Below, piece after piece: positions 2,620 through 45,065 of a DNA stretch of 64,000 nt (position 1 is the stretch's first letter; every line of letters starts with the position of its first letter). Made by a program: the position numbers and the translations under genes. This DNA is from an uncultured bacterium (lineage in GTDB: Bacteria; Patescibacteriota; Minisyncoccia; Phycocordibacterales; UBA918), in the NCBI GenBank assembly GCA_965652925.1, contig CBFGXL010000002.1:4881-68880 (forward strand). Direction: 5' to 3'. The notes below the pieces were generated by a model. The model worked only from the letters and a program-made list of their open reading frames with translations. It did not search any database and had not been told where the DNA came from.

Positions 2620-3312
2620 CTAGTTGGTGGTAGCGGTCAACGTAGCAGTTGCAGTGTACGTGCCTGTCTGTATAGCTGGGCTTGGATTACTTGGTATGTT
2701 GACGCGGAACTGGATAGTGGTCGTTGCCCCCGATGCGGCGGTCGAAGTTGTCCTGTTTATGATAGTTTCTGCTGCATCATCAGGGTCCATCCAACACGTT
2801 CCAGAACCATCCGTTGCACCTGTCGCACAGGTATTTGACCCGTTATCAAGAAACGACGCATCGAGGTCAGCCGATGAGGAGGCAGTTACGGTGTATCCAA
2901 ACTGTGCGAATGTATCGCTGGTGAAGGTATAGTCTGGCGTACCATCAGCTGCTGGTGCGTAGTTGCTTATATAACCACCACCGCCATCGCGGATCATTGC
3001 AGTTGTGCTTGAGAAGGCAATGGTCATGTTATAGCCCGCCGCATTGTTGGTACGGACCCGTACAGCATACGAACCATTTGAAGTACCTCCTGTGATACCT
3101 GCAAGTGAAGGACTCATCGTCACATCACTTGAAGTTGCCACAAATGAGATCTCCTCAGTGACTGTCTGAGTGACTTCAAACTCATCAGTGTCAACCGCCG
3201 CTCTTCCCACAACCGGTTCGAGCATGAGAAATGATCCTGCTGCAAGCAACAGCATGAGCGTTGTTGCAGTGAGCGAACTCAGCAGCGAAGTCCTAATATT
3301 TGTAATGGTCAT
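2620..3312 (-). CDS. Secreted Thr/Ser-rich protein, paralog of 779..1540, with a WxL-like C-terminal domain (W positions substituted).
   Basis: It has a signal peptide (LLSSLTATTLMLLLAAGSFLMLEP), a collinear alignment to 779..1540, and the C-terminal YTATATLTATTN. Confidence 0.55.
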   Translation of the reverse strand: MTITNIRTSLLSSLTATTLMLLLAAGSFLMLEPVVGRAAVDTDEFEVTQTVTEEISFVATSSDVTMSPSLAGITGGTSNGSYAVRVRTNNAAGYNMTIAFSSTTAMIRDGGGGYISNYAPAADGTPDYTFTSDTFAQFGYTVTASSSADLDASFLDNGSNTCATGATDGSGTCWMDPDDAAETIINRTTSTAASGATTTIQFRVNIPSNPSPAIQTGTYTATATLTATTN

Positions 3313-3426: not shown

Positions 3427-6400
3427 CTAAATCTCTCCTCCTCCACCCCCGCCGCCGCCTCCTGCCTGGGTGTAGGGCCGCACTTGGATGGCATCAACCC
3501 GGACAGTGTTCTGATCGGGTTGTCCGATAACCCGCACTACGAAGTTTGCATCACCCAGTTCAGCAGGCGTCCATCCTCTTCCCCATGTGTCGGACGGTCC
3601 GCCGAGCGTGTAGACCGCGTCAGATCCCGTTAAGACTGAGGTTGCTTTGGTTGCAGTAACAGAACTGTCTCCATTCCATGAAAGCGCAACCTGGATAGTA
3701 CCCGCGCCAGTAGAACCAGATGCCTCGAGTTTTACTTCTATACCCTGTACGGTATTGCCGCCCGGCACATTGAATCCAAAGAGGCTATAGGATTGGCGCA
3801 GGTTTGTAGATGCTGCTGTTGCATAGACTCCGTCGGAAGAAAGAGCATTGCTTCCTCCTGTCCACTCGCTATAGAGCTCTCCAGTTGCGCTTGGAGCCTC
3901 AAAGCCTGGTTCGTTGCCAATCTCTTCCCCATTGTCTTCCTCTCCTACCCCGCCGCCGCCTTGGCTTCCGCCGCCGCCGACGTCTCCATCGCCTTCGGGC
4001 GCCTCACCTCCCACTTCGGCCGCATGCAAAGCTCCGCTTCCATTGTTTCCTCCGCGGATATGCTGCACGCTTGAGACAGACCCGAGTGGAACGATGGCCC
4101 CAGCGGTAGTAGCTCCGGTGCCAGACAAACCGGTAGTTGGCAAACTGATAGTTACATATTCATTAGTGAGTACTCCCGACACGTCGCTTGTAAGGATGTA
4201 GTCTTTGGTTGTGGTTGCACTCCATGATGTTGAGAATGTGACCGTTCCTGATTGTTCTGTAACCGAGATCTCTCCTGCCCCACCAATCTGGTTGTCCCCT
4301 GCATCTACAGACCCGTCGCTGTTGTTGTCGCGATACAGCCTCAAGTCTGAAAGGTTGCTGCTGTCTATGCGGCGGATGCCGGAGAGCGCGAACGCCGCCG
4401 ATGAGATAGTCGCATTCTCTCCTTCAGGTGCAAGCCTGAAAGTATAGAGCGGCACATCGCTCTGGTTCTGATAGCTGAATTCATTTTCCACCTGTCCCGC
4501 TGTATGTTCAGAAAGCGTTGCTGCGCCGTGAATGGCAATTGTTTTATCGTCGGTTGCGGTTATCTGCGCGACAGAACTACCTGGCGCAGTCATGACGCGG
4601 TTGGTGCCGCTATTGGCAACTGCTACGAGTGTTCCTGTTTCATAAAGATCACTTGCGTATGTGATCGAAGACCACTGATTTGCTTCAGCGGCTGTACGCA
4701 CAGTCCAGTTATTACCATCGGGTGAGGTCATAACATAGTCACTACCGCTTCCCACAGCAACAAAGAGATCGGATGCGTATACTACTGAGGCCCATGAGTC
4801 ATTATCACCAGCCGCCGAACGTGCGGTCCAGTTAATACCATCGGGGGAGGTCATGACGCGATCGCTACCGCTTCCCACAGCGACAAAGAGACCGTTGCCG
4901 TAAGTGACGCTCGTCCACCAGTCATTATCACCAGCAGCAGAACGTGGGGTCCACGTTGTACCGTCAGGAGAAGTAATAACACGGGTGTTTCCACTACCGA
5001 CTGCGACAAAGAGACCGTTGCCGTAAGTGACCGACTGCCAGTTACCTGAGACGGCTTGTGCGCTCCAAGTGATGCCATCATCTGAGCTCATGACCGACGC
5101 ATTAGTTCCACAACCATTATCGTATCCGCCGCAGCCAACTGCCACGAATTTGCCTGAACCATAAGTAACCTCTGACCATATTTGATCAGTGGCAACTGAA
5201 CGTGCAGTCCACGTGATGCCATCCGGAGAGGTCATGATCGGATCATCGCTACCTCCTGTACTCACCGCCACAAAGATACCTTCTCCATACGTTATGGAGG
5301 ACCAGGAATCATTATCACCAGCAGCCGAACGTGCGGTCCAGTTAGAACCGTCAGAGCTTGTCATGACGCGGTTGGTTCCGTTTTCGGCAACAGCAACGAG
5401 TAGTTCACTTTCGTAAGCGACTGAACTCCACGAGTTTGCTTGTGCAGCGGAGTGGGCAGTCCAGGCAGAACCTCCATCTTCTCCAGCACTCTCTGTAATT
5501 AGGACAAGTGTACTCGTTGCGGTGTTGACCGTTCCAAACTGCACGAATGAAAGTCCTGAGATAGTGAGAGTATCACTCCCAACGAAATCGTTAGAGACCG
5601 GAACAACAAGCGTCGCCCCACCATTCTCATACGAGACCGGATTTGCAACCTTGCCTGAAGCAGTGCCTCCGAAGGTAGCAGTGGTATCTGTAGTGTCCCA
5701 CAACATATCGGTTGCAGAAGTATCGATCTTAATGCGGAGGTCATTTGCTGCAGTAATTGCTGGGGTCTCCCCGTCCGTGATGGTTATGGTCGCTATTGTT
5801 GTAGTAGCTTGACCGTACCCAAAGACCTGGTTTGAAGCTGAGGAGATGGTTCCCGGCACGGGCTCACCCCCAGTAATATCCCAGCAGGTGTTATTGCCGC
5901 TGTCGGTAGAATCAGTTGCGGTTATGTTCGGGTTCCCTGAGCAGGCGTTTGAATCCTGTACGTCAACATAGGTCACCGAGATCGGGGTGGTGACATCAAG
6001 TCCCCACTGTGTCCCTTCTTTTGATGAGCGGAGTATCGCCTCACCCCCTTCTTCCCCATCAATTCTCAGAGAAGCAAAGGTTGAAGTAGCATATGCTGGA
6101 AACTCAAACGTCACCCCAGGGGTCTGTGAAATAAATTTTGATGCTTCCACGGGAGTTGAGAACCGGATGGTCCCATCCACACGAGATCCGCTGTTCGAAA
6201 TCATGACCCTGTTGCTCCCTGCTTCGATGTCGCCGACCGCCACAAACGTGCCATTGCCATAGGTGACCGAGAACCAATCATTAGCCTCCGCAGCGGCCCG
6301 CGCAGTCCACGTGATGCCGTCAGGCGAGGTCATGACGCGATTGGTGCCTGTGTCCGCAACCGCAACAAACAGACCATCGCCATAAGTAATCGCGAACCAG

Positions 6401-9400
6401 CCGCTTGCCTCCGCAGCTGCGCGGGCGGTCCACGTGATGCCGTCGGGTGAGGTCATGACGCGATTGGTGCCTGTGTGTGCTACCGCCACAAACGTGCTAT
6501 TACCATAGGCGACCGAGAACCAATCATTAGCCTCCGCAGCTGCGCGGGCGGTCCACGTGATGCCGTCGGGTGAGGTCATGACGCGATTGGTGCCGTCAGA
6601 GGCGACCGCTACAAACAGACCTTCACCATACGTGACTGATACCCACGAGTTAGCTTCCGCGGCAGAACGGGCGGTCCACGTGATGCCGTCGGGTGAAGTC
6701 ATGACACGGTTGGTCCCGTCAAAGGCGACCGCTACAAACAGACCTTCACCATACGTGACTGATATCCACGAGTTAGCTTCCGCGGCAGAACGGGCGGTCC
6801 ACGTGATGCCGTCGGGTGAGGTCATGACGCGATTGGTGCCATCTTGAGAAACGGCAACAAAGGTTCCATTGCCATAGGTAACACCGAGCCACGTCTGATT
6901 ATTGCCTGGAGTACTTCGTGCGGTCCACGTGATGCCGTCGGGTGAGGTGATGATTTGGTCATCTCCATCATACGCAACTGCAACAAAGAGACCTTCCCCG
7001 TAGGTGACTGAATACCAGCCTTGTGTTGACACGTTACTGCTTGTCCATGTTGTTCCTCCTTCAGCATTTGATCCGGAGGAAACCTTGACCACAAGATTGT
7101 TAAATGCCGAATCAGAGCTTAAAGCGCCGGTGAGCGTCTGGTCATTACCTGTAAGAGTAGTTGTCCCTGTTCCCCAGTCAATTGTTCCGTCATTGGTGTA
7201 ATCCCCTGCAATCGACATCAGCGCCGGCGCGTCGACCGTGGTCGATGCAGTGATGGTGAGGTCGCTTGTTGAAGCGTTGTTCTCAAAGACAACACCTCCT
7301 GCAAGACTGCCGCTGTTGGAGGTCATGACACGGTTGGTGCCAGTATCGGATACAGCTACAAGCATTCCATTCCCATATACCACCTCCATCCATCGATTTG
7401 CTTCTGTAGCAGGCGTACCTGTCCACGTGATGCCGTCGGGTGAGGTCATGACTCGGTTCCCTCCTGCTGTAGTGTTGCAGCTAGCGTTGCCGATTCCGCA
7501 TGCAACCGCGACAAACGTATGGCCCGTATGAGTGACCGACTCCCAGTTGTCGGCAGGCGCCGTTCGCTCGGTCCAGGTGATGCCATCGGGTGAGGTCATC
7601 GCAAGCGCAGTTCCATTTCCTACTGCAACAAAGAGTCCTTCGGCGTAGACAATACCGTGCCAAGACGACTGCGTCACAAGGGGCGTCCTTGTGGTCCACG
7701 TGATGCCATCGGGTGAGGTCATGATCGTACCATCCCATGATAAAGCCACAAAGAGGCTGTTGCCGTAGGTGACTACACTCCACTGGCTTGCCTGGGCTGC
7801 AGTTCTATTGGTCCACGTGATGCCGTCAGGAGAGGTCATGACGCGGTTGGTGCCGTCAACTGAAACGGCTACGAACATATCATTTCCAAATGCTACGCTA
7901 TACCACGAGTTAGCCTGTGAGGCGGTTCGTGCGGTCCAGGTGATTCCATCAGGCGAGGTCATCACGCGGTTGGTACCGCTTTCTGCTACTGCAACAAAGA
8001 TGCCATTGCCATATGTGACGGAGTTCCACCCAGCGGACTCGTCCGCAGACGTCCGAGCGGTCCATGTGATGCCGTCGGGAGAGGTCATTACATTATTTGT
8101 GCCTCCATTAGATACCGCAACAAAGAGTCCCTCGCCGTAGACAAGACCCTGCCACGAATTATTGGTAGCTGCACTGCGCGCGGTCCACGTGATGCCGTCC
8201 AGAGCAAGAGTCTGCGGACTATCAAGCGTCAGATCGTTGAACGCCGAAGTGCCGGTCATGTTGCCAGAGAGCGTGGTGGTACCTGTGTATACCGTTGATT
8301 CATCGTAATCAAGAGAATACGGAAACACTGTGTCTGCAGCCGCACCATATATGTATACTTTCGAGCCATCCGCATTGAACTCGATGCTGCATACGGAACT
8401 CTCCTGTGCAGATACCGATTCACCTGCTCCGTCGTATGTTGCAGTAGTTATGTCCCATGGCGTTCCGAGCGTGTACGGGAAAATGGTGTTTGAACCTGTT
8501 CCCACAACATACATCTTGGTACCATCGTCCTTAAGATGCACATCCTGCACAGCACTTTCCTGTCCGCTTATCAGGAAGGACTTGCTGTCATAGGTCGCGC
8601 TGCTGATGACCCATGGAGTTCCGAGCGTATATGAGTATATGCGATTGTTGCTGTCCCCGGATATATACATGCGAGTTCCATCCTCTGTAATGTGCATTCC
8701 GAATGGACTGACATCCTGAGCAATAGAGAAGGACGAGCTGTCATAGCTGGCTGTGGTGACATCCCATGGAGTTCCGAGCGTATAGGAGAATACAGCGTCA
8801 TTCTCTGAACCGAGCATGTACATCTTGGTGCCATCGGTCTTGAATGACACCTTCTCAACCCACTGGTCTTGAGCCAGGATACTGAAGGATTTGTTGTCAT
8901 ACACAGCTGTTGTGACGTCCCACGGGGTTGAAAGAGTGTACGAATACACCGTATCCATGTTGTACCCCGCTACGAACATCCGAGTGCCATCGGGACTGAA
9001 AGCAAGGCTTGTGATGTTATTCTCTTCGCTTGCAGTGGACTTCCCTGCGCCATCGTATACAGCAGTGGTGACGTCCCAGCCGCCGGTTACGGTGGTTGAA
9101 GCAGTAGTGGTTCCATTGATATACACAATGCCTGAGCCGCTGTTGAACGTGCCGCTGTTAGTGTAATCCCCCGTTATGGTCAAGGCGCTTGGGGCAGCCA
9201 CTGTAGAGCCCGAAGCGATCGAAAGATCGCTTGTGCTTGCATTGTCGCTGAAGGTCTTGGTGCTGTTGCCGGAGAAATAGACATCATTGAAAGCGCTCGT
9301 GCTTGCCATGTTCCCCTGGAGTGTTTGGGCCGTTGAGCCGGTGAAGTACACCGCTCCGCCGTTGTGTGTGAAGGTACCGTCGTTGGTATAGTCATCGGCA

Positions 9401-12400
9401 ATCGACAGCAGAGCAGGAGCAACAACCGTGGTCGAAGCGCTTCCGATAGTGAGATCGGTTGTTGAAGCATTGTCAGCAAAAGTGACCATGTTCTCGTACG
9501 AACCATCGCTTGAGACCAGAACCTGGTTTGTTCCGTCGGTACTTACGCCTACAAACTTACCTTCTCCATAGGTCAGGGACCTGAAGAAGTTCGTGTTTGG
9601 CGCGGTCTGTTCGGTCCAGGTGATGCCATCTTCTGAGGTCATGATATAGGTGCTTCCGGTTAATATATCGCCCAAAGATGCAAAGATACCTCCTCCATAG
9701 GCAAGTCCGTACCAGTCACTATTGCCAGGTGTAGTCCTTGCAGTCCACGTGATGCCGTCAGGCGAGGTCATCGCAGTATCGGTCTCACTGACCGCGACGA
9801 ATATACCTTCCCCGTAGACCACCCTCTGCCAGCCGGATGCGCTTGATGCACTACGAGAGGTCCAGGTGATGCCGTCTTGTGAGGTCATGACGCGGTTGGT
9901 TCCCGTATCGGAAACTGCAACATAGGTTCCATTACCGTACGTTATACCCATCCAATCATTTGCCTCTGCAGCTGTTCTGCCGGTCCACGTGATGCCGTCA
10001 GGCGAGGTCATAACGCGGCTGGTGCCGCTATACGCCACCGCAACGAATTGACCATTGCCGTAGGTGATTTCTCTCCATGTAGAGCTTTCGTCACCGGAGG
10101 TTCGCGCAGTCCACGTGATGCCGTCGGGCGAGGTCATGACGCGGCTGGTACCGGTGTTCGCAACAGCCACGAAGAGGCCGCCGCCGTACGTAACCGCTTG
10201 CCACGAATTTCCTACAGCTGGGGTGCGGCTGGTCCAGGTGATACCGACGGGTGAAGACATGACGTCTCCATCCCAGGAGACTGCGACGAAGGTCCCATTG
10301 CCATACGCAACGCCGCTCCACTGCGAGGACGCTGACGCACTTTCCTCTTCCCAGACAGCTGCTGTGTTAGCTAATTCTCCCGTTGAAGTGGCAGTAAGGT
10401 TCCCAAGCGCAGAGTTTCCGGTGAGATTACCCGAAAGGCTGCTGTTCCCTTCGATTACCATTGTGCCATCGTTGTGGTCGAACTCGCCGTTGTTCGTATA
10501 GTTGCCTTCAACCGTGATCGTCCCCGAAGGCGCAGTGACCGTCGCTGTTGCACCAATGGTCAAATCCCCCATCGCAACATCATTCGTGAAAGAAACCGTG
10601 CTGTCATCGGCGGTAATAGTGAAGTCGGCAAAAGTTGTCTCTCCGCTTCCGGTAAAATCCTTATCCGTGTCTGGAGTGCCGCCTCCTTCTGTGCCGGTGG
10701 TGAACTGGAAAACGTCCTGCTCATCAAAGCCGTACATGTACATTTTCACTCCATCGTTCCCAAAGGCAACCTGCATCGGGGAGAATTCAGTGAATGATTC
10801 TGCGCCGAAATCGAATGTCTCACCGCTGACAAGGACCGCTGTAGAGATATCCCACGCAGTGCTGAGCGCATATTCATACATGGCGGACGTAGAGTGGCCT
10901 ACCATGTACATATACATTCCGTCACTGGTGAAATGAATGCCTGTGGGGGTAGTATCCTGCGATGCAACAGAGAATGTCTGGGAAAAGACACCAGTAGAGA
11001 CATCCCATGCGACACTGAGGTTATATTGATGGACCGCATCACTGTTGCCTCCCACCACATACATCTTGGTTCCGTCAGAACTGAATTCCACTCCGTATGG
11101 GTTCGTTTCTTTTCCGCTTACGTCCAAGTAGTCAGTATATGAGGCTGAAGAGACATCCCACGGTGTGGACACAGCATATTCACCCACAGCCGCAGCGCCA
11201 TCTGCAGTTATGTAGAACTTCGTACCGGTATCATTGAAATAGAGGTCTCCAGCAAAGTCTTCCTGCGCCGCCACGCTAAAGGTATTGACCTGCGAAGCTG
11301 TTGAGAGGTCCCAGGCGCTACTGAGCGTGAACTCGCGAACGATGTCTGTTGACCAGCCGAAGGTGTACATCTTCAGTCCGTCTGAACGGAAATGGAGTCC
11401 TGCAGGTCCTGTGTCGGCAATACTTTCCAAGACACTGTCATAAGTTGCTCCGGCCACATCATAACCGACGGTATTGTTCTCAAGATCAATGGTCGTTGCT
11501 CCTGAGGCCTGCGTGAAAGTGCCGTTGTTAGTAAAGTCAGAATTGAGTGTAAGCGCGTCTGGAGCAGCCACTGTTGAGCTCGCAGTGATCGTGAATGCTC
11601 CATTCACTACTGCATCAGCAGTGAAGGTCTGTGTGGTATCTGCATAGGACCCGCTCTCTGAGGTCATGACGCGGTTAGTGCCTCCGTACGAAACTGCTAC
11701 AAAAGTATCTTTTCCGAAGGTAACAGAATTCCAGAATGTAGACTCAGCTGCGCTTCGTGCAGTCCAGGTGATGCCGTCGGGCGAGGTCATCACGCGATTG
11801 GTACCGCTCTCCGCAACGGCAACAAAGAGGCCATTGCCGTAGGTAACTGAAGTCCACGCATTTGCTTCAGCTGCTGTGCGCGCGGTCCAGGTGATGCCAT
11901 CAGGGGAGGTCATCACTTGATCCGTACCGCTTGTTGCAACAACCACAAATGTTCCCTCTCCGTGGGTAATTGAATACCACTGATGATCCCCCGCATCTGT
12001 TCGCGCGGTCCAGGTGATGCCGTCAGGACTTGTCATGACACGGTTCGTTCCATTATTTGAAACGGCTACGAAAAGGTCTTCAGCATATATAACTGAAGTC
12101 CAAGCGTTCGCTTCTGCAGCGCTTCGCGCGGTCCAGGTGATGCCGTCAGGACTTGTCATGACACGGTCAGTTCCACTTCCCACAGCAACAAAGAGGCCAT
12201 TGCCGTAAGTGACGCTGTACCACGTATCATCATTGCCTGCAGCCGAACGAGGAGTCCAATTGACCCCGTCAGACGAGGTCATAACACGATTCGTTCCCGT
12301 TTGAGCAACGGCTACGAAAAGACCATTGCCGTAAGTGACGCTGTACCAGTTATTTGCTTCAGCCTCAGCTCGAGCTGTCCACGTGATGCCGTCAGACGAG

Positions 12401-14928
12401 GTCATAACGCGGTTGGTTCCTGTTTCAGCAACAGCCACAAAGAGACCGTTGCCGTAGGTAACAGACAGCCAATTGTTTGCCGCAGATGCAGATCGCCCAG
12501 TCCATGTCACGCCATTATTTTCAAAATTGCTCACCGAGACTAAGAAACTTCCATCTGCTACCCCAGCTCTATTGACCCCATCAGAGTTGATCGCAACCAC
12601 CTTGCCGTCTCCATAGGTTATGTCTTCCCACTGCGCACTTTCTGCTTCATCGACAGGAGTCCAATTGATGCCATCAGTGGAGATCATGACCTGCTCAGCA
12701 AGATCGCCGTACCCGATCGCCACGAAATACTCGCCTGTAAAAGTAACTCCTATCCAGGACCCGTCATAGGTCGCGTCCCGCGCAGTCCAGGTTATGGCGT
12801 CAGGAGATGTCATGACATTCATGGTCCCGGCATTAAGGGATGAGACAGCTACATAGGTGCCGTTGCCATACGCGATACCATTCCACCAATTGTTTTCAGC
12901 TGCAGTGCGGTTCGTCCACGTGATACCGTCTGGAGAGGTTGCTACGCGGTTATCTCCCACAGCAACAAACTGGCTGTGTTCTTCGTTGAACATAACATTG
13001 TAAATGCCGTTGCCTGATGCGGTACCGGAAGACCACGTAAGACCATCGTCTGAATACATTGCGGTACCGTCGTACGAGAGCGCAACAAACCTCCCTTCGC
13101 CATACGCAACAGCAGACCACATATCTGCAGAAGCAGCAGTTCGGTTCGTCCACGTAATGCCGTCCTCTGAGGTCATGACGCGGTTAGTGCCATTAGGTGC
13201 CACAGCGACGAATCGGCCTTCGCCATACGCGACCTTTCTCCATTCGTTCGCCTGTGAAGCAGAGCGTCCTGTCCAGGTGATGCCGTCAGGAGAGGTCATG
13301 ACGCGAGAACCTCCCGCCGTTGCGTTACATGCGCCATCAACAGAGATGCCGCAGGCAACCGCCACAAAGAGACCTTCACCGTAGGTGACTCCTTGCCATG
13401 GGTGAGCAAGGCTCGGCGTGGAAGCGGGGATCCAGTGCGTTCCGGTGACCAGCACTCTTTGTGTCGAAGAACCAGTTACTATAGGACCATAGGAAATTTC
13501 GTTTCCGCTTATAGTCGCATCCACCGGAAACGAGGTTGTACCCGCAGTCAGGTCAAGCGTACCGTTATTTTCTAGGTCTCCTCCAAGTACTGTTGAAGTG
13601 GCACCAGTGAAAGTATCCCCGCTCCATATATAGAGCTTCTGCCCATCGTCGATTAAGAGCTCTCCATCTCCTTCCCTGACGACATAGGAAATATCCTGAT
13701 CATGCCTTCCGTCATAGGTTCCCATTTCATCAAGCGACGTAGCTCCATCATCCTCATTCCGGATGATGACGTGGTCTTGATAAAGATCCATACCACTGAG
13801 TGCCCCAGAGCCGGCAGTCAAAACAAGAGCACCCCTCGTGCTTTGGTCACCGTCCACCCAAACAACCGCAGTTTCGCCCTCAGCTGGAGCAGCAGAAATG
13901 CTCCAGTCACCGTTACTGTCGGTGGTTGCGGTGGATACTGTGCCGTCAACGTAAGCCTTTATAGTCTTGCCTGTGGTGATCGCTGTAGAGCCCTCATCAG
14001 CATATAGAGTCCCTGACAACGAGGGAGCAACTTCAAACTCTCCAGTGGAGATTGCTACCCAATCATAATTTCGCGATGCGCAGTTCGCATCCGCATCGTC
14101 CTCAAATTGAAGTGACACTCCAGTTGTTGTCTTTGTTCCAACCTCAGGAGAACACAGAGCAGCATTCACCCCTTGAGCCATGGCCACTACGATATAGCTC
14201 GTATCTGGGAATGCTGTTGAGAATGTGACCGAACCGACACCGCTGCCATTTGTAGTTGCACTGCCTGCTTTTATATTTGCCCCGTCAACCGTGTACTCCC
14301 CATGAGAAAATGCACAGTAATTGGTATCTGTCACCGCCTCTGTAGCTCCACCATCATCCTCGATGCGTATCACCGCCTGAGATGTGGTCTTGGAACCTGA
14401 ATTGAAGTTTACAACTGGAGAATCGGTGTCGGTGATAGCATTCGCAATAATTGAATAATTTGTATCCGGGAAAGCACTTGAGAATGTAACAGTGTTGTCG
14501 CCCGCGGTACCTCCGCTCACAGCACACTTCACATACTTGCTACTGCCGAGATTCCAATCTCCATATGTAAGTGCCATCCAGTTATTGCTATTGGCATTCT
14601 CTGCCGAACCCGTGTCATCTTCAGCAACAATGGTGAAGCCTCCGGCTGCTTTGTTGCTGTACGTCATGGAGTACATAACATCAGTTCCGGTCGACCCTCC
14701 ATTGAGAAGGATTGAGTAACTACTGTTGGCCATCGCTGAGCTAAAAGTGACGCCGACAGTACCTCCACTGGTGATATTTATAGCTCCTGTTTTGAATTCA
14801 AAAGATTGTGCATGTGCATGCCCAACAACGCCGAAGAAAAAGAGAGCGGCCAAAACACACCCCATCATTAACATATATATATATGAGGTGATTGATCTTG
14901 TATGAAGTTGTAAAGTGATTTTTTTCAT
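3427..14928 (-). CDS. Giant (3833 aa) secreted surface protein with three N-terminal H-type-lectin-like domains, more than 40 BNR/Asp-box-like 41-aa repeats in five blocks, two blocks of PD40/TolB-like ~55-aa repeats, beta-helix-like Thr/Asn-rich linkers, and a Gly-rich C-terminus.
   Basis: It is a single 11.5-kb ORF with an N-terminal signal (MLMMGCVLAALFFFGVVGHAHAQ). The repeated unit is NRVMTSPDGITWTARSAAEANSW.SVTYGNGLFVAVA, matching S-x-D-G-x-T-W. A second repeat class is FSSDGTKMYVVG..D.V..Y.L.TPWDVSTA. The N-terminus carries three ~90-aa VTFSSAFPDT.YSII...IRIEDD units. Confidence 0.85.
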   Translation of the reverse strand: MKKITLQLHTRSITSYIYMLMMGCVLAALFFFGVVGHAHAQSFEFKTGAINITSGGTVGVTFSSAMANSSYSILLNGGSTGTDVMYSMTYSNKAAGGFTIVAEDDTGSAENANSNNWMALTYGDWNLGSSKYVKCAVSGGTAGDNTVTFSSAFPDTNYSIIANAITDTDSPVVNFNSGSKTTSQAVIRIEDDGGATEAVTDTNYCAFSHGEYTVDGANIKAGSATTNGSGVGSVTFSTAFPDTSYIVVAMAQGVNAALCSPEVGTKTTTGVSLQFEDDADANCASRNYDWVAISTGEFEVAPSLSGTLYADEGSTAITTGKTIKAYVDGTVSTATTDSNGDWSISAAPAEGETAVVWVDGDQSTRGALVLTAGSGALSGMDLYQDHVIIRNEDDGATSLDEMGTYDGRHDQDISYVVREGDGELLIDDGQKLYIWSGDTFTGATSTVLGGDLENNGTLDLTAGTTSFPVDATISGNEISYGPIVTGSSTQRVLVTGTHWIPASTPSLAHPWQGVTYGEGLFVAVACGISVDGACNATAGGSRVMTSPDGITWTGRSASQANEWRKVAYGEGRFVAVAPNGTNRVMTSEDGITWTNRTAASADMWSAVAYGEGRFVALSYDGTAMYSDDGLTWSSGTASGNGIYNVMFNEEHSQFVAVGDNRVATSPDGITWTNRTAAENNWWNGIAYGNGTYVAVSSLNAGTMNVMTSPDAITWTARDATYDGSWIGVTFTGEYFVAIGYGDLAEQVMISTDGINWTPVDEAESAQWEDITYGDGKVVAINSDGVNRAGVADGSFLVSVSNFENNGVTWTGRSASAANNWLSVTYGNGLFVAVAETGTNRVMTSSDGITWTARAEAEANNWYSVTYGNGLFVAVAQTGTNRVMTSSDGVNWTPRSAAGNDDTWYSVTYGNGLFVAVGSGTDRVMTSPDGITWTARSAAEANAWTSVIYAEDLFVAVSNNGTNRVMTSPDGITWTARTDAGDHQWYSITHGEGTFVVVATSGTDQVMTSPDGITWTARTAAEANAWTSVTYGNGLFVAVAESGTNRVMTSPDGITWTARSAAESTFWNSVTFGKDTFVAVSYGGTNRVMTSESGSYADTTQTFTADAVVNGAFTITASSTVAAPDALTLNSDFTNNGTFTQASGATTIDLENNTVGYDVAGATYDSVLESIADTGPAGLHFRSDGLKMYTFGWSTDIVREFTLSSAWDLSTASQVNTFSVAAQEDFAGDLYFNDTGTKFYITADGAAAVGEYAVSTPWDVSSASYTDYLDVSGKETNPYGVEFSSDGTKMYVVGGNSDAVHQYNLSVAWDVSTGVFSQTFSVASQDTTPTGIHFTSDGMYMYMVGHSTSAMYEYALSTAWDISTAVLVSGETFDFGAESFTEFSPMQVAFGNDGVKMYMYGFDEQDVFQFTTGTEGGGTPDTDKDFTGSGETTFADFTITADDSTVSFTNDVAMGDLTIGATATVTAPSGTITVEGNYTNNGEFDHNDGTMVIEGNSSLSGNLTGNSALGNLTATSTGELANTAAVWEEESASASSQWSGVAYGNGTFVAVSWDGDVMSSPVGITWTSRTPAVGNSWQAVTYGGGLFVAVANTGTSRVMTSPDGITWTARTSGDESSTWREITYGNGQFVAVAYSGTSRVMTSPDGITWTGRTAAEANDWMGITYGNGTYVAVSDTGTNRVMTSQDGITWTSRSASSASGWQRVVYGEGIFVAVSETDTAMTSPDGITWTARTTPGNSDWYGLAYGGGIFASLGDILTGSTYIMTSEDGITWTEQTAPNTNFFRSLTYGEGKFVGVSTDGTNQVLVSSDGSYENMVTFADNASTTDLTIGSASTTVVAPALLSIADDYTNDGTFTHNGGAVYFTGSTAQTLQGNMASTSAFNDVYFSGNSTKTFSDNASTSDLSIASGSTVAAPSALTITGDYTNSGTFNSGSGIVYINGTTTASTTVTGGWDVTTAVYDGAGKSTASEENNITSLAFSPDGTRMFVAGYNMDTVYSYTLSTPWDVTTAVYDNKSFSILAQDQWVEKVSFKTDGTKMYMLGSENDAVFSYTLGTPWDVTTASYDSSSFSIAQDVSPFGMHITEDGTRMYISGDSNNRIYSYTLGTPWVISSATYDSKSFLISGQESAVQDVHLKDDGTKMYVVGTGSNTIFPYTLGTPWDITTATYDGAGESVSAQESSVCSIEFNADGSKVYIYGAAADTVFPYSLDYDESTVYTGTTTLSGNMTGTSAFNDLTLDSPQTLALDGITWTARSAATNNSWQGLVYGEGLFVAVSNGGTNNVMTSPDGITWTARTSADESAGWNSVTYGNGIFVAVAESGTNRVMTSPDGITWTARTASQANSWYSVAFGNDMFVAVSVDGTNRVMTSPDGITWTNRTAAQASQWSVVTYGNSLFVALSWDGTIMTSPDGITWTTRTPLVTQSSWHGIVYAEGLFVAVGNGTALAMTSPDGITWTERTAPADNWESVTHTGHTFVAVACGIGNASCNTTAGGNRVMTSPDGITWTGTPATEANRWMEVVYGNGMLVAVSDTGTNRVMTSNSGSLAGGVVFENNASTSDLTITASTTVDAPALMSIAGDYTNDGTIDWGTGTTTLTGNDQTLTGALSSDSAFNNLVVKVSSGSNAEGGTTWTSSNVSTQGWYSVTYGEGLFVAVAYDGDDQIITSPDGITWTARSTPGNNQTWLGVTYGNGTFVAVSQDGTNRVMTSPDGITWTARSAAEANSWISVTYGEGLFVAVAFDGTNRVMTSPDGITWTARSAAEANSWVSVTYGEGLFVAVASDGTNRVMTSPDGITWTARAAAEANDWFSVAYGNSTFVAVAHTGTNRVMTSPDGITWTARAAAEASGWFAITYGDGLFVAVADTGTNRVMTSPDGITWTARAAAEANDWFSVTYGNGTFVAVGDIEAGSNRVMISNSGSRVDGTIRFSTPVEASKFISQTPGVTFEFPAYATSTFASLRIDGEEGGEAILRSSKEGTQWGLDVTTPISVTYVDVQDSNACSGNPNITATDSTDSGNNTCWDITGGEPVPGTISSASNQVFGYGQATTTIATITITDGETPAITAANDLRIKIDTSATDMLWDTTDTTATFGGTASGKVANPVSYENGGATLVVPVSNDFVGSDTLTISGLSFVQFGTVNTATSTLVLITESAGEDGGSAWTAHSAAQANSWSSVAYESELLVAVAENGTNRVMTSSDGSNWTARSAAGDNDSWSSITYGEGIFVAVSTGGSDDPIMTSPDGITWTARSVATDQIWSEVTYGSGKFVAVGCGGYDNGCGTNASVMSSDDGITWSAQAVSGNWQSVTYGNGLFVAVGSGNTRVITSPDGTTWTPRSAAGDNDWWTSVTYGNGLFVAVGSGSDRVMTSPDGINWTARSAAGDNDSWASVVYASDLFVAVGSGSDYVMTSPDGNNWTVRTAAEANQWSSITYASDLYETGTLVAVANSGTNRVMTAPGSSVAQITATDDKTIAIHGAATLSEHTAGQVENEFSYQNQSDVPLYTFRLAPEGENATISSAAFALSGIRRIDSSNLSDLRLYRDNNSDGSVDAGDNQIGGAGEISVTEQSGTVTFSTSWSATTTKDYILTSDVSGVLTNEYVTISLPTTGLSGTGATTAGAIVPLGSVSSVQHIRGGNNGSGALHAAEVGGEAPEGDGDVGGGGSQGGGGVGEEDNGEEIGNEPGFEAPSATGELYSEWTGGSNALSSDGVYATAASTNLRQSYSLFGFNVPGGNTVQGIEVKLEASGSTGAGTIQVALSWNGDSSVTATKATSVLTGSDAVYTLGGPSDTWGRGWTPAELGDANFVVRVIGQPDQNTVRVDAIQVRPYTQAGGGGGGGGGEI
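6299..6913. repeat. Five or more tandem copies of a 123-bp (41-codon) unit with very high nucleotide identity inside the 3833-aa gene, encoding BNR/Asp-box repeats.
   Basis: The core cgggcggtccacgtgatgccgtcgggtgaggtcatgacgcgattggtgcc recurs starting at 6299, 6422, 6545, 6668 and 6791, an exact 123-bp period. Confidence 0.85.
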
Positions 14929-14931: not shown

Positions 14932-17900
14932 CTATGGTGTTACTTCTATGCTTTGTTCTTCTGCTGTCTCGACCTGCGGTTCTTCTGCAACTTCTTCTTG
15001 TGTCCCCTCTTCTACAACTGGTTCTTCTGCTGTCTCCTCTGTTTGTGGTTCTTCTGTAGGTTCATTCTGTGGCTGTAATTCTGTTTCCTGTGGAGGTTGT
15101 TCTGTCTGCGGCTCTTCAACTGGCGGTTCTTCCTGCATGGCGTCCTCCGGAGGAGGCGGGGTTGCTTCGGTATCGCCCGTGCCACCCTCAGTCTCCCCGC
15201 CTCCTTGCGTTTCAGAAGGCGCAGGTTCCTGCGGTTCTTCCTGCGGCGGAGGTGTCTGTTCCCCGCTTCCTGAGCCATTACTTGGTCGATTGACTTCCAG
15301 CAAGAGTGCACGTAGGTCGTCTGCTGTGAGGCATACACCGTCCACACAAAGCTCGTTTTCAACATATACATTTTCTGCACGCAAGCCCGCAACATTGAGC
15401 ACACCGTCAACAAAGCCCTGCGCGAGCGTCTTGACTCGATCCCAGAGCGTTTCTTCTCCATCACTGCCAAGGACGACATCCGTTGAAGTTGACGTCAGTT
15501 CAGCAAGGAGCGACTCTGCATTAGCCGGATGCCAGCCCAAGTTTACAAACATGAGCGCCTGGCCGACTTTCACTGCCTGCCCGTCTGCGATCTCCTCTTC
15601 CCGCGCATCTTCGCGCGCCAGATCACGCAACGCATCTTGCATTTCCTCGTGTTCGTCAGCAATTGCTGTCTCAACAGACTCGAACCGCTGTGTATCGCGC
15701 GGTGTACACTCCTCCTCTTCCTCGCCGAGTGCGACGCCGCCACCGAAGTAACATCCATCGTGGATGCGCTCATCATCCTCTTGCGAAAGCGGATCGGTCT
15801 TCGGTTCTGCGATATCGTCACCGAACTGATCAATGAATCCTTCCGAATATGCATACTCGCCGTCATAGTCTTCAAGTGCCACACCTACAACCGTGCCGCT
15901 TTCTGTTGCCTTCATACCAACTCCCGGAATCGACGAGAGCATGATCTTGTCCCCTGCCTTGATCGGTCCATTCTCTGTTGAAAGCTTCACCGGCACGCGT
16001 CCTGAAAGTGCAACTGGGTAACCTTCTTGTCCAGAAGTTAAGGAGGTGTCGTCAAATCCGAGTGTGAGTCCCGGCTTGGTTGAGACCACGCCGATGATGT
16101 TCGCACTGTTCTCTTCGTCGGCGCGTTCAATACTGAGGATTCCAGCGGTAGCAATGATCTCTCCTGGCTCAAGGTCCTCTGAGGAGAAATACATTTCGGC
16201 CAAGTCAGAGTTGCCAACTGCCGATGAAACAGACGTGATCTTTCCTGTTGTTGACGCATTACAGCTACCGTCGTTGTCGACACACAAACCCCCGTAACCG
16301 ATCTGCAATCCCGCCATGTTGTTGGTAGTACCGTCTCCGATGGTCGTTGTACCGTGTGCAGTGACCGTGAACTTCGATGTCCCTGCGTTTTGGAAGTCGA
16401 CAAATTTTGAGGTAGTTGATGAGAACGATCCTCCCGAGTTGCCGAAGTTCATTACCAAGCCAGTGCCAGCAAATGCAGACGTATCTTGGAAGAGGCTTAC
16501 GAGGTCTTCGGTAGTGATCGAAGCCGAGTATGCCCGAATGGCATTTCCTTGCGTTGTGCCACGTGTCTGAGCGAAGACTCCAGCAGGCTGGAAGGTACCT
16601 CCTGCGTCACCCTCAGTAGTACCGCGCACACCGAAGGTTCGTCCGAATGCAGAGATACCGGTATTCTCTCCTTGTGTATTGGTGCCACGATGTGCCTGTA
16701 CTTCCAAGCCACGCACAGTGTTCCCAAGCGCAGTATCGTCCTCAATACGAAGCATCTTTCCTACGAGTGTTGAGGTCGCTGTTGGCGCGTTCACTATATA
16801 TGAATTGTCACCGTAGTAGACCGCGCTTGCCGATGAGTTTGTGAAGTTGAAATACTGATGAATGCCCGCAGTCCTCGAACCACTAACGCTCGTTGTCCCC
16901 ATCGCGAGCAGTGATGAAGGCGTGGTGGTACCGATGCCAACAAACCCAGTATCAAGAATACGCATCACGTCAGTTCCACTGCCCGCCTGGATCGTAACGT
17001 CAGCACCGGTGTTATGTGCACCAATTGTGAAGAGATCCGAAGTGTGATTCCAGTTTATCTGTGCACCAACACCGTCAGAAGGAGTTCCGAAGTAGATCAT
17101 CGAGTTAGACGCATCGGGTGTCATGAGGGTAAGGCCAGCATTGCCTGAACCTTCAAGGACAAGTTCATCAGCAGCACTATTCACTGCAGCCCCGCTTGCT
17201 CCACTATACACATGGAGTTTTCCATTCGGAGAGGCAGTTCCTATACCAATATTTCCCGCCCCATTGATCACAAGTCGATCATTAGTACCTAAGGCTGATG
17301 ATGATGAGATCTTGAACTTCGCTCCGTCAGAGTCATCGATACCGATACTCCACTTTTCGTTTGCACCGGAGACCGTTGAGAATTCAATTGCAGCGTCTGC
17401 GGCATTATTGAAGATAGAAAGTTTTTGGTTTGGTGTTGAGGTACCGATACCCATTCGACCATTGGTCAAAGTCGCAACACCATTCCAACCAGCAACATTG
17501 AAAGTGAGGTAGTTTGAGCCGCTCGTAATTGCATTTGCATTACTTGTTGCGTCTAACTCAATATAATCGCTCACACTAGATGGATTGGTTGAACGTATAG
17601 CGCCGTACACATCAAGTTTTGACTGAGGACTTGTAGTACCAATACCCACATTACTCGCAGGAAGAAGTGCGAGATTGCCAGCAGAGTTTCCAAACACAGT
17701 TGCACCATTGTTCTCTACCTCGAGATATGCAGAGCGGTCGTTACCAGAGTCAAAAATATTCATGCTGAAACCATTGAGAATTTCTGCATGTGATTCAATA
17801 CTTACAACATCTCCACTACCAAAGAGTGTTGGATAACCAGATGCTTCGTTCAAGCTCACAAAAAGATAATCACCGCTTGCTCCTGTCATGGTGAAGTCTC

Positions 17901-20900
17901 CATTTGAAGCAATGGATACACCCTCATCGCCTCCATCTCCTGAGAGGAAGTTGGAACCGAGCGCGATGTTGGCGGCGTTACCTGAGAGCGTGAGTGTTGA
18001 CGTAGCGCTCAATGCTGAGAATGTTGCAGTACCTGAGAATGCAGGCGAACTTGAGAACACTGCGCGTTCAGTACCTGTTTCGTCGGTGAGTATTGCCGCA
18101 AGCTCTGCTGAAGTATCGATATCAGATGAGGAAAGCCCACCCCCACCAAGACCAAGCGTCGAGGTGGCGACCCAGTTGAACCCTGAGCCGGTTGATTGCA
18201 AGATCATGCCGTTGCTTCCTGCGCTGTTACTGTTGTCGTATAAGGCTCCGGTGATACGAGCACTCCCAGCGACAGTGAGCATCTGCGACGGTGTTGAGGT
18301 ACCGATGCCAAAGCGGCTTGAGGACATGTTCACTGATGAAAGTGTATTTGCAGACGTGGTTGCCGGTATGTTTGCAAAGAGGAAGTTCCCGATGTTGAGG
18401 AAGTTTGAGGTGTTAGTAGACGTACCCAAGGTATTGTTACCGATCATGATGTTGTTGAATCCGGTAGTTATATTGCCGCCAGTTGTAGTGGTGTTGTCTT
18501 TCGATCCAAGGTAGATGTTGCCGTAGCCAGTGGTGTTGGCATAACCAGCCCGATAGCCTAAAGAGACATTATTAGATCCGGTGGTGTTATTTTGAAGACC
18601 ACTCATGCCTACTGCCGCATTGTTCCTACCCGTAGTGTTGAGGAGTAGAGCATTCCTACCAAGGCCGGTGTTTCCTATACCAGTGAGATTGCCTGAGAGG
18701 GCGTAATTGCCGAGGGCGGTGTTGTTCGAGCCGGTAGTATTGACATCAAGTGTGTCAACACCTATTGCCACATTGCTATTACCCGTGGTGTTTGAGAGAA
18801 GCGAACCACTACCGAAAGCAGTGTTAGCAATTCCTGTGGTATTGGCGAAAAGTGAAGAATAGCCAACGGCAGTGTTTTGATTTCCTGTAGTGTTAGAGTA
18901 GAGCGTATTGATACCGACAGCAGTGTTCGAACCTCCCCCAGTAATAGAAGATGGCAGTGCGTTAAAGCCGCTTGCATAGTTGGTTCCGCTCTCACCCAAA
19001 TTCATAAGCCGTGTGCCATTACGAGCAAAGAGATTGATTGATGGGGTGTAGGTAATTTCCCGAACAGAAACGTTATCGATAGTATATAAGGTGCCCTCAC
19101 TATAGTATGAGCTATCTACGAATAGCGTGTCAGTTCCCGTGTAATCAGCAGTGAAAATAACTTGATTCTGTGCAAAGTAGCTATTATTTCCTTGAAGGCT
19201 ATTATTGGTGAAATAAACAGAGGCAGAGGAGCTTGCGGCGCCGCTAAAATCATATTGGATCAGATAGGTGTGCCCTGCCACGGTAGAAATGTTTTGTGAG
19301 ACAGTCGCATCGTTACATGCAGAAACACACGATACGCGGACATTGTTGCTGTTGTATGAAGCATCAGAACCAAGCGTCCAACCAGTGGCACTACCGGTGA
19401 AGGAACCGTTCGTAATGAGCTCGCTGCCGATGATAGTGCTTGAGGCTTGAGCGGTGAGTGAGGCGTACGAGGTAGAAGTTCCTATAGTAACCGTCTTGCT
19501 GTGAAGATCATCGGTAATACGAGCACTTCCTGCAACAGTGAGGAGCTGAGATGGGGTTGTGGTGCCGATACCGACGTTGCCAGTGCCTGTAACGGTGAAG
19601 TCAACGCCTGCATCACCTCCTGTCTCGACACTTAAATTACCAGATGCATTCATATACAGAAGTGCGTAGGTTGAAGGATTATAAAGTCCGATACCAGCAT
19701 TCGAAGTGCCAGATGTCTCTGTGATCTGTAAAAATGGGTAGGTAGATGCGACCAACTCGATATCATCAGCAGGCGAGGTCGTACCAATACCTATACGTCC
19801 CGCGCTCGTAACGAAGATACCCTCATCCCCTCCATCTCCCGAGAGCCAATTAGAACCAAGTGCAATATTTGCGGAAGATCCTGAGAGCGTGAGACGTCCT
19901 GACTGTGTGGTAGTTGCAAAAGAACCTGTACCGGTAGCAGTAAGGCTCGAGAAGGTTGCCGTACCGGAGAACGCAGGAGCGTTCGAGAAGACGAGGCGGC
20001 CGGAGCCGGTTTCATCGCCAACAATGGCAAGCAGTTCGCTTGAAGTATCAAGAAGACCGTTGTGAGTGAGGGTTGCGTCTGCAACGATCGCGTCGAGTTC
20101 TGCGTAGGTGTCGATATCTGCTGAGGTGAGACCGCCCGTGATGCCGAGTGTTGAAGTCGCAACCCAGTTGAACCCTGAGCCGGTAGACTGCAAGACCATA
20201 CCGTTTGAACCTGCGCTGTTGCTGTTGTCGTAGAGAGCTCCGGTGATGCGGGCTCCTCCGGCGACCGTCAAAAGTTGAGACGGGGTTGAGGTTCCAATAC
20301 CCACATACCCCGCCCCATTGATCACTAGGCGATCATTGGTACCAAGTGCTGAAGAAGAAGAGATCTTGAACTTAGACCCGTCGCTGTCATCAATGCCGAT
20401 CGTCCACTTCTCATTTGCTCCTGAGATAGTTGAGAACTCGATCGCAGCGTCTGCGCCGTTGTTGAAGATAGAAAGCTTCTGGTTAGGAGTAGTGGTGCCG
20501 ATACCGAGGCGGCCAGTTGAGAGGATGAGTCCTGCCCTATTGTTTGATGAGAGAAGTGACGAAGAAGCAGTGCCCTCGATGGTGAGTGCGCCATTAATGA
20601 GAGCATTCTGACCGACGTTGAGTCCACCGCGCACATTCACCCCTTGGTCGAAGGTTGCAGTTTGCTTGGTGCGGAAGATGTCGAAGAGTCCAGAGCCCGC
20701 GAACATGTTGGAGACGGTGAGGCCGGAGATATCGATTATGGCGAGGTTGTTGGAGGCAGACCCTGTCACGTACACATAGTTGCCGGAGACACTGACAGAT
20801 CGGGGACCATCCATCACATTTGCGTCATTTGGATCCCAATTACCGACGGTGACCGGTGCGGCCGGATCAGAAATATTGACGATAGCGAGGTTCTGTGAGA

Positions 20901-23802: not shown

Positions 23803-24511
23803 CCGGTACTAATAAAAAAGTTGTAGACCCAGAACCATTCTTGAATATTGGGCGTATCAGCGGACCACCCTCCTCATCGAAGATGATCTCCACATCATCA
23901 GAAAACTCTGCTGCCACACTTTCAACCAGAGCAGTATCCTCCTGTTCACTCCGCGGTGGAAATTGCGGCAATGTCGTAAAGATCTCGACGTCTTCGCGAA
24001 CCGTGGTGCTTCCCTCAAGCGCTGCAGAGATATGCTTTTCATCTCGAGAGAATTCCAATACGAAACTGGGGAGTGTGGCTTTAGCAACAAGCGCAACGTT
24101 CTCTGATGCGGCAGAGCTCAACTCTGTAAGTCCAACCTGTTCATGTGACACAACCCACCCAAGCATTCCCACAATCCCTCCGCATGTCAGCAATACAGCA
24201 GCCTGAGCCAATGCAAGAAATTCATGGTCCTTTGAAGCACCGCCCACATCTGTTTTTCTCTGATGAGACTCGTGTTCGATCTTGCGTACTCGTCTGAGTT
24301 CCTCCTTTCTGATCTTTTTCTCAATCTCAACTTGTGCGAGATATGTGTTGAGTGATCCGGGTTCGATGAACCACTGTCTGCCCACCTGAGTTCCAAGAAT
24401 TTTTTCCTCCCGGGCAAGCTTGCCGATGTAGTCATGACTGTACCCGCACTGCGAAGCAAGTACGTTGCTTGGAACGTACTCTTTTCCGTTTATGACAAGG
24501 CTCTGCGTCAT
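23783..24511 (-). CDS. Membrane-tethered DNA-binding protein with an N-terminal HTH_17/excisionase-family HTH, one TM helix and a ~115-aa C-terminal extracytoplasmic domain.
   Basis: The N-terminal ~55 aa (INGKEYVPSNVLASQCGYSHDYIGKLAREEKILGTQVGRQWFI) fits the excisionase-type HTH pattern (..G.S..yIgkLaR.G.i....vGrrwrI). The TM segment is LALAQAAVLLTCGGIVGMLGWVV. It is a paralog of 24555..25586. Confidence 0.6.
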   Translation of the reverse strand: MTQSLVINGKEYVPSNVLASQCGYSHDYIGKLAREEKILGTQVGRQWFIEPGSLNTYLAQVEIEKKIRKEELRRVRKIEHESHQRKTDVGGASKDHEFLALAQAAVLLTCGGIVGMLGWVVSHEQVGLTELSSAASENVALVAKATLPSFVLEFSRDEKHISAALEGSTTVREDVEIFTTLPQFPPRSEQEDTALVESVAAEFSDDVEIIFDEEGGPLIRPIFKNGSGSTTFLLVPVENRNE

Positions 24512-24554
24512 ACGATTTACCTATATATTTTATAAGTAAATCGCTAATTTTATT

Positions 24555-35245: not shown

Positions 35246-35283
35246 CCATGCTTTTCAGATTACGCACAGCAGGTTGGCCTGTG

Positions 35284-36012: not shown

Positions 36013-36036
36013 GGTTGATGATTATATTACTGACCA

Positions 36037-38019: not shown

Positions 38020-38083
38020 ATTTAGTATGTGATTGTTGACAAAGAATATATCTATAGCATAGCAAGCTCAGCTATATCTGTAA

Positions 38084-40078: not shown

Positions 40079-40124
40079 GGGGGATGTGATGACCCCAACA
40101 CTATAGCACGGAAGGCTCAGTAGA

Positions 40125-44567: not shown

Positions 44568-44582
44568 AATTAAAATTACATC

Positions 44583-45059: not shown

Positions 45060-45065
45060 TTAAAT

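Follow-up and report, generated by a model that had tools for sequence, protein, structure and literature searches.

The window analysed here is a stretch of 64,000 nucleotides (nt) from an uncultured bacterium of the Patescibacteriota (Minisyncoccia; Phycocordibacterales; UBA918), taken from contig CBFGXL010000002.1 of assembly GCA_965652925.1. Candidate Phyla Radiation (CPR) bacteria live attached to other microbes, and the mechanism by which they recognize their hosts is largely unknown. Positions 3427..14928 of the minus strand carry an intact gene, running from an ATG to a stop codon, for a protein of 3,833 amino acids (aa) and 399 kDa, called here the giant, the modular architecture of which we interpret below in favour of an adhesin. 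A preceding sequence-only reading had proposed this open reading frame, which was confirmed on the minus strand, and its DNA coordinates for the repeat blocks proved accurate to within a few tens of bases. In the following, the modules of the giant are given with their residues and window positions, all on the same minus strand.

The giant is acidic (pI 4.05) and abundant in Thr, Gly, Ser and Ala. Its sole hydrophobic segment spans aa 17-35 and is followed by AHA|Q; from hydropathy and sequence, aa 1-40 (14809..14928) were assigned as a Sec-type signal peptide or signal anchor. The cysteines occur in close pairs. Because of the one hydrophobic segment, the paired cysteines and the low pI, the giant fits a Sec-exported, extracellular protein. 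No further hydrophobic segment is present, so there is no C-terminal transmembrane (TM) helix, and scans of aa 3660-3833 against Pfam and NCBIfam gave none of the known C-terminal sorting signals (LPXTG, PEP-CTERM, GlyGly-CTERM, T9SS CTD and others). A look-up of the exact protein sequence returned no record.

Directly behind the signal peptide stands a head of three tandem units of 86-87 aa, close to the three units of about 90 aa that had been noticed from the sequence: N1 (aa 41-127; 14548..14808), N2 (aa 128-213; 14290..14547), with a Cys135/Cys205 pair, and N3 (aa 214-300; 14029..14289), which ends in DWVAISTGE. They can be aligned to one another and to outside homologues, and almost no linker is left at their joints. 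On aa 41-300 the Pfam hidden Markov model (HMM) PF21882 Gp53-like_C ('putative tail fiber protein gp53-like, C-terminal') reached 49.1 bits over three stretches (cut-off 24.9), N2 alone yielding 25.5 bits. The NCBIfam model NF012201 WIAG-tail scored 38.7 bits (cut-off 33), and tail-fibre families of PHROGs matched the head with E values of 8e-9 and 4e-8. The units also carry the terminal motif W-[IV]-A-[IL]..G, as in phage heads. HMM matches, alignment and structural modelling thus assign N1, like its two neighbours, to the Gp53-like_C / WIAG-tail domains with a lectin fold.

The units had previously been likened to H-type lectins, and this likeness stands at the level of the fold and fails at the level of the family. 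The Pfam model PF09458 H_lectin gave no match at E<=1 with the whole protein or at E<=5 with aa 41-300, and the family that did match is the phage family Gp53-like_C. An AlphaFold2 (AF2) model of the three-domain head (predicted local distance difference test, pLDDT, 73.6; predicted template modelling score, pTM, 0.69), in which N3 is the best-modelled unit (pLDDT 85-93), has the fold of the AP22 gp53 head (PDB 4MTM) and with it the H-type-lectin beta-sandwich. In the structure comparison the phage heads ranked above the H-type lectins, and discoidin I (8.1), SLL-2 (7.8) and Helix pomatia agglutinin (HPA; 7.4) followed immediately. Specificity for GalNAc is not supported by any evidence.

The heads of AP22 gp53 (4MTM), the cyanophage Pam1 tailspike receptor-binding domain (7EEA) and LKA1 gp49 (4RU4) belong to the same sequence family as the three units of the giant, which lie above both curated cut-offs. 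According to the gp53 structure paper, the trimeric fibre bears a lectin-like head, which has HPA as its top structural neighbour and pockets in the lectin domain that bind the small polyols ethylene glycol and glycerol. Phage fibres are homotrimers in which each chain has a single Gp53-like_C domain, placed at the C-terminus, whereas the giant has three tandem copies within one chain, at the N-terminus, and continues as a cellular protein of 3,500 aa encoded among chromosomal housekeeping genes. Because each chain of the solved, homotrimeric relatives contributes one domain and the tandem copies are nearly linkerless, the three copies probably pack into one single-chain pseudo-trimer.

A word-indexed search found the same triple head in one other protein only (P0001, 56% identity), placed on a different body, and gave in addition one single-domain protein; a profile of the head unit added 17 more proteins, mostly single-domain ones of about 109 aa. 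In viral and phage-like contigs the Gp53-like_C domain was present once, with 32-42% identity, at the C-terminus of a 571-aa protein (e.g., L020). Neither a tblastn search of 50,697 phage records with the head nor a search of PDB sequences, where matches were at chance level or absent, brought further relatives. The stand-alone proteins of about 109 aa (P0147-P0155) combine an N-terminal '...LVGGxQTxLHSHAGGGG' stretch with one Gp53-like_C domain and might represent either small tips of phage fibres or free lectins.

Behind the head, much of the chain consists of repeats. The motif S-x-D-G-x-T-W occurs in 36 strict copies spaced by 38-50 aa and, together with six degenerate first blades, marks 42 blades of a 41-aa repeat. 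They are grouped in six blocks of about 290 aa with seven repeats each, which were delimited by the motif and by alignment of the blocks (mean column identity 61%) and, for B, E and F, also by DNA repeats: propellers A (aa 505-798; 12535..13416), B (aa 799-1093; 11650..12534), C (aa 1525-1808; 9505..10356), D (aa 2241-2538; 7315..8208), E (aa 2623-2912; 6193..7062) and F (aa 3153-3447; 4588..5472). Tandem Repeats Finder detected 123-bp DNA arrays with 68-83% identity in this region, and propeller E, the most regular of the six, contains one of 4.9 copies (83% matches). The count of more than 40 copies in the earlier reading was therefore right, whereas its five blocks are six propellers, the first block (13416-11650) being two.

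That the 41-aa repeats are real propeller blades, as had been anticipated, is what the structural model indicates. In an AF2 model of propeller D together with the adjacent block of longer repeats (pLDDT 90.2), propeller D folds into seven blades of four strands each (nearly all of its blocks have pLDDT 88-98), and the other domain into five. Foldseek with this two-domain model returned generic tandem propellers only and was uninformative on the family. With regard to sequence, the Pfam model PF19755 DUF6242 scored 70.9 bits against 29 in 15 stretches, and a profile of the six blocks found Ycf48 as the sole solved match among PDB sequences (E 4e-5). The giant shares with Ycf48/DUF6242 propellers the blades of about 41 aa and the seven-bladed fold and differs from them in having six copies in one chain. 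The close homologues of the repeats (55-62% identity), found with a 590-aa piece of the giant, are surface proteins that are uncharacterised and carry tails of the fn3, Big_2 or T9SS type.

The canonical Asp-box reads S-x-D-x-G-x-T-W, and the motif of the giant is one residue shorter, a feature that also sets it apart from Ycf48/DUF6242 propellers. Family scans of the giant found neither a canonical Asp-box nor a Pfam BNR or sialidase match. Of the 'BNR-like' label given to these repeats, the shortened motif and the relationship to Ycf48 can be kept, and the BNR assignment cannot. The Asp-box-like motif nevertheless bears on one alternative, namely that the giant is a secreted polysaccharide-degrading or lytic enzyme with catalytic propellers of the sialidase/BNR, lyase or lactonase type, brought to the substrate by the head. 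A weak match to the NCBIfam glycosylhydrolase model F510_1955 (27.5 vs 175 bits) and the automatic naming of homologues of the second, longer repeat as lactonases speak for it. Yet every enzyme-family score is far under its cut-off, the canonical motif and the BNR and sialidase matches are missing as stated, and the blades are near-consensus copies (the 61% column identity across blocks), as one typically sees in binding or structural propellers that were amplified recently and not in differentiated active sites. As far as the sequence allows us to judge, nothing points to catalysis by the propellers, and we consider an enzymatic role very improbable.

The second, longer repeat ('FSSDGTKMYV') is present in five copies in each of two blocks, designated R55_I (aa 1157-1412; 10693..11460), delimited by repeat alignment and profile, and R55_II (aa 1949-2210; 8299..9084), which the model above folds into five four-stranded blades with pLDDT 88-98 in most of its 10-residue blocks. 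The two blocks had been foreseen as propellers of a 55-aa repeat of the PD40/TolB type; the blocks and the propeller fold (by AF2) were retained, and the period was corrected to about 51-52 aa. PD40 (PF07676) remained below its cut-off (12.5 vs 20.9 bits), as did the YVTN model TIGR02276 (10.2 vs 27.85 bits), and the nearest solved structure found with the 52-aa profile is the YVTN propeller of the Methanosarcina mazei S-layer protein (PDB 1L0Q, E 1.6e-7). By these profile matches the 52-aa blocks are YVTN-like rather than PD40. In contrast to 1L0Q and YncE-like propellers, which consist of seven blades of about 40 aa, each 52-aa domain of the giant has five longer repeats. Its homologues (P0025-P0143) are mainly proteins of about 800 aa with about 15 consecutive repeats, automatically named YncE/YvrE lactonase, and one member of this family comes from a Nitrosopumilaceae archaeon.

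The propellers are joined by a set of linkers and smaller modules. L1 (aa 301-504; 13417..14028) combines a weakly CarboxypepD_reg-like beta-sandwich ('LSGTLYADEGST...') with a Thr/Gly-rich segment; when contigs were scanned with aa 41-504, the sole match was a stretch of 33% identity to the L1 region in an Elusimicrobia metagenome-assembled genome. The Thr/Asn-rich linkers described earlier, for which a beta-helix fold is putative, are indeed present and recur in relatives. Linker L2 (aa 1094-1156; 11461..11649) has one such '...APxxLxIxGDYTNxGTF' module and L4 (aa 1809-1948; 9085..9504) two, both recognized by reading the sequence, as was L6 (aa 2539-2622; 7063..7314). The shortest linker, L5 (aa 2211-2240; 8209..8298), is modelled as disordered (pLDDT <50). 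The family scan gave no match for linker L3 (aa 1413-1524; 10357..10692) or for the module between propellers E and F, named Mid (aa 2913-3152; 5473..6192). Propeller F is followed by an all-beta-looking module (aa 3448-3625; 4054..4587), for which 'Ig' serves as a label only, and by a low-complexity linker rich in Gly and Glu (aa 3626-3675; 3904..4053), read from the sequence.

The chain closes with a conserved C-terminal domain (aa 3676-3824; 3457..3903), delimited by its HMMER relatives, and with the tail G9-E-I (aa 3823-3833; 3430..3462), recognized from the sequence and the family consensus. The last residues are thus ...QAGGGGGGGGGEI, a run of nine glycines and then Glu-Ile. An exhaustive HMMER search with this domain retrieved 4,814 cluster representatives (clusters at 50% identity) at E<=1e-3, of which 1,311 reach E<=1e-10, and sequence searches of Pfam, NCBIfam and PDB, including one with a 26-sequence profile, gave no match. 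The counts that follow refer to the 150 best relatives of the domain. In 99 of them it ends at most 15 aa from the C-terminus, and 81 have a run of at least four glycines within the last 22 residues. The usual ending, found in most of the 150, is ...VYHQAGGGGxGGGG[E/A/G/R][I/L], with the consensus GGGGxGGGG-[EAGR]-[IL]-COOH; the giant conforms to it, since its domain (E<=1e-10) ends about 9 aa before a GGGGxGGGG-x-[IL] terminus. The G9 run had been reported merely as the end of the protein, and because the same ending recurs across most of the best relatives, it is part of a conserved C-terminal signature of a large family. In a minority of relatives the domain is followed, in place of the Gly tail, by 40-55 aa of aromatic or hydrophobic character.

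Many of these relatives are giants too, as 67 of the 150 have at least 1,500 aa and the longest 5,201 aa. The sharing of modules with the giant drops steadily from the C-terminus toward the N-terminus: all 150 have the C-terminal domain, 116 the 'Ig' module, 93 the Mid module, 70 the linker module L4, 41 L1, 34 the 41-aa propeller and 16 the 52-aa propeller, and the triple head is shared by none (0/150). Other heads take its place in relatives, for example a glycine-rich domain, Gly_rich_2, in P0170, and an unassigned domain in P0165, the C-terminus of which is 87% identical. Up to 11 tandem copies of the C-terminal domain were seen in DUF2341 proteins of Asgard archaea (Hodarchaeales, Promethearchaeota; P0162, P0312), and because of these tandem copies the domain is a general extracellular module and not a terminal one only.

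Taken as a whole, this architecture leads us to favour, with moderate confidence, since its binding, its polarity and its anchoring were all inferred, the giant as a modular adhesin with a phage-type, probably glycan-binding and swappable head. That the C-terminal chassis is conserved and the N-terminal head variable is our main reason for proposing which end would face outward. The conserved C-terminal end would fix the giant to the envelope of the producer or to a partner, and the variable head would act as the distal determinant of specificity, binding a surface glycan of another cell, the host or prey of the episymbiont. As a single-chain pseudo-trimer, the three copies might recreate the three-site head of a phage fibre. 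The string of propellers could serve as a long spacer and perhaps offer extra binding surfaces of low affinity. The giant is probably co-expressed with the gene upstream, which encodes LVIVD repeats, and with the genes downstream, which resemble those for the Pam pilus of CPR bacteria, as one cell-contact cluster; all of them lie on one strand, and the gaps on the two sides of the giant are 3 nt and 114 nt. The word 'adhesin' is in our opinion a reasonable inference.

Several observations weigh against this interpretation. In the sole functional assay, an infection assay, AP22 gp53 had no detectable role in host binding, and the identity of the head to H-type lectins (HPA, 2CCV; discoidin I, 2W94; the coral lectin SLL-2, 3WMP; all of the PF09458 type) is only 14-23%. 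The pseudo-trimer is affected by the modelling of N1 and N2, which reach pLDDT 58-78 and are covered by only two sequences. Only the conservation pattern suggests that the head points outward and the C-terminus lies on the producer's side, and a head placed directly after a signal peptide could equally be membrane-proximal. The C-terminal domain, to which anchoring is ascribed, has no recognised fold and no pilin similarity (hhalign probability 0.09 against the 253-aa product of a neighbouring gene). Within the analysis, membership in the CPR was deduced from the match of this 253-aa protein to the NCBIfam model CPR_pilus_PamT (E 4.6e-12), which with 45.9 bits is far below the equivalog cut-off of 240.

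The opposite polarity is the core of a second alternative, in which the giant is an envelope or S-layer-type protein. The head would then bind the producer's own wall polysaccharide, possibly a sulfated glycan, the propellers would form a protective or spacing coat, and the C-terminal module would be exposed or make lattice contacts. The position of the head directly after the signal peptide is in line with this, and so are the lack of a recognisable C-terminal membrane or wall anchor and the surface-layer protein of M. mazei (1L0Q) as the best solved relative of the 52-aa repeat. Sulfation and polysaccharide genes are moreover encoded in the same window. However, an anchor is normally the conserved part of a family, whereas in the giant conservation is highest in the C-terminal modules and lowest in the head; elsewhere the head family is a module with which phages bind receptors; and the glycan cluster is 18-30 kb away, with the housekeeping genes gatB, obg, secA and murB in between. 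We regard an S-layer-like role as unlikely.

The glycan cluster itself (33008-46696) encodes a bifunctional ATP sulfurylase/APS kinase, a sulfotransferase, a flippase, FkbM-type and other methyltransferases, a polysaccharide deacetylase, an AT3-SGNH acyltransferase and a Wzy_C-TPR protein. A 660-aa DNRLRE/CBM96 protein with a C39-like peptidase domain is encoded there as well. Judged by its gene content, the cluster plausibly makes a sulfated surface glycan. The sulfate-activation, sulfotransferase, flippase and Wzy-like genes lie 18-32 kb upstream of the giant, and these sulfation genes are real, but nothing ties them to the giant, and its binding to the sulfated glycan encoded about 25 kb away, an idea of the sequence-only reading, is speculation.

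Returning to the modular adhesin, comparable designs are found in other host-dependent microbes. Saccharibacteria depend for their epibiotic growth on several surface proteins that bind glycans. The giant follows the same logic as these adhesins, being a very large secreted protein with lectin-like and propeller modules and a putative role in cell contact. The fibres of the Bdellovibrio mosaic adhesive trimers and the SPEARE proteins of Nanohaloarchaeota are also giant modular contact proteins with a general likeness to it. Homology of the giant to the proteins of these three groups was neither tested nor found, and it differs from them in its C-terminal module and in the type of its head. Giant adhesins in host-dependent microbes are known already, as are all the propeller and head folds. 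What is new is that a phage head stands in triplicate at the N-terminus, that two propellers have five repeats each, and that a very common C-terminal domain with a poly-Gly tail has escaped annotation.

If the modular adhesin is correct, a phage-type lectin head on a common chassis makes a testable model, in which a swap of the head should change the host, and a recombinant head fragment of 260 aa could be used to seek the receptor. The C-terminal domain with the poly-Gly end (more than 4,800 clusters at 50% identity, missing from Pfam, NCBIfam and PDB) is a candidate new family and perhaps a new surface-attachment signal. Should the giant turn out to be an ordinary adhesin, the value would lie mainly in improving how the many 'hypothetical' giant genes, at which metagenome assemblies break, are annotated. 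Two linked ideas can be joined in a more far-reaching proposal, which we put forward tentatively and with considerable doubt: that the episymbiont has rebuilt a phage receptor-binding head as a single-chain pseudo-trimer tipping a 400-kDa propeller stalk for host recognition, so that phage and epibiont would compete for, or share, one type of receptor-recognition module, and that the C-terminal domain with GGGGxGGGG-x-Ile is a hitherto undescribed attachment or sorting signal for thousands of giants on wall-bearing bacteria devoid of an outer membrane, possibly in concert with a Pam-like machinery.

The genes around the giant are encoded on the minus strand as well. Downstream lie four genes: one for a pilin-like protein of 230 aa (2620-3312), one for a chaperone-like DUF916/WxLIP_PGBD protein of 351 aa with a C-terminal TM helix (1546-2601), the PamT-like gene (779-1540) for the 253-aa protein, and one for a protein of 561 aa with FnIII domains (1-782). 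Only the first 260 aa of the last one are in the window. The operon is also present in another assembly (L005:10001-14216), and the complete protein has a signal peptide, FnIII domains and three C-terminal TM helices. The 230-aa and 253-aa proteins are secreted paralogues with 41% identity, and the former has a marginal BLAST match to linker L2 of the giant (E 0.014 over 45 aa).

A preprint on the Pam pilus (bioRxiv 10.64898/2026.03.03.709456) describes an operon of a CPR parasite with pilins, TM-anchored PapD-like chaperones and an FnIII and TM anchor, together with a conserved, co-localised tail fibre-like gene, and proposes donor-strand exchange. The operon next to the giant resembles it in its PamT-like, paralogous pilin-like, chaperone-like and FnIII plus TM genes. 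It differs in that the PamT match is sub-threshold, in that the models of PamA, PamB, PamC and PamD found no match among the neighbours tested, and in that the giant itself has no pilin-like domain. The four-gene operon resembles both the WxL loci of Firmicutes and the Pam pilus operon, which hints that the two systems may be related.

This neighbourhood raises a third alternative, namely that the giant is a tip or accessory adhesin built into the Pam-like pilus, by analogy with FimH and PapG, which join a lectin to a pilin domain; the C-terminal domain would accept the donor strand of a pilin. The giant lies directly upstream of, and co-directional with, the two pilin-like, the TM-anchored chaperone-like and the FnIII plus TM genes, and both donor-strand exchange and the co-localised tail fibre-like gene of the preprint would agree with such a role. 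On the other hand, the C-terminal profile resembles neither the 253-aa PamT-like protein nor any solved pilin sequence, and the domain is also found in archaeal proteins and in arrays of as many as 11 copies, which is unusual for a pilin domain. The tail fibre-like gene of the preprint may equally correspond to the LVIVD neighbour. Since the pilin-like proteins and the C-terminal domain are not similar, a built-in tip adhesin is not supported and appears distinctly improbable, and the C-terminal domain was rejected as a PamT-like pilin domain. All three alternatives are less well supported than the modular adhesin.

Upstream, the LVIVD-repeat protein of 2,956 aa is encoded at 14932..23802, its stop codon lying 3 nt before the ATG of the giant. 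It has seven LVIVD repeats, recurring fibre-like 'GIGTTTPSxKL' motifs and a very acidic, Pro/Glu-rich C-terminal tail. Its matches to Bdello_MAT_N, the N-domain of the Bdellovibrio mosaic adhesive trimer (22.9 vs 60 bits), and to the NCBIfam choice-of-anchor B model are weak. We rejected the idea that this protein carries the C-terminal module of the giant, as no BLAST similarity was found at 1e-3. Just upstream of the LVIVD gene, two paralogues of 242 and 343 aa without a family match are encoded at 23783-25586 of the minus strand. Both begin with a common domain of about 55 aa (38% identity), behind which lies a hydrophobic segment, and they may regulate the gene cluster from the membrane. 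Rfam gave nothing in the 64-kb window. The G+C content of the two giant genes is 49-55%, whereas a large part of the polysaccharide cluster (42-48 kb) has 36-47%, and this difference could stem from the Gly/Ala/Thr-rich composition of the giants or from a different origin.

The same locus, flanked by housekeeping genes, is present in many metagenome assemblies, and short-read assemblies break within or beside the giant genes. Over 3,294 aa, the giant and its counterpart in one assembly are 99.9% identical. Two others were compared over window positions 3427-13557: L007 has exactly 41 aa, that is one blade, fewer than the giant, and L005 is 89.7% identical with 118 gap positions. Such differences in length could reflect either variation in the copy number of blades between strains or the collapse of repeats in short-read assemblies.

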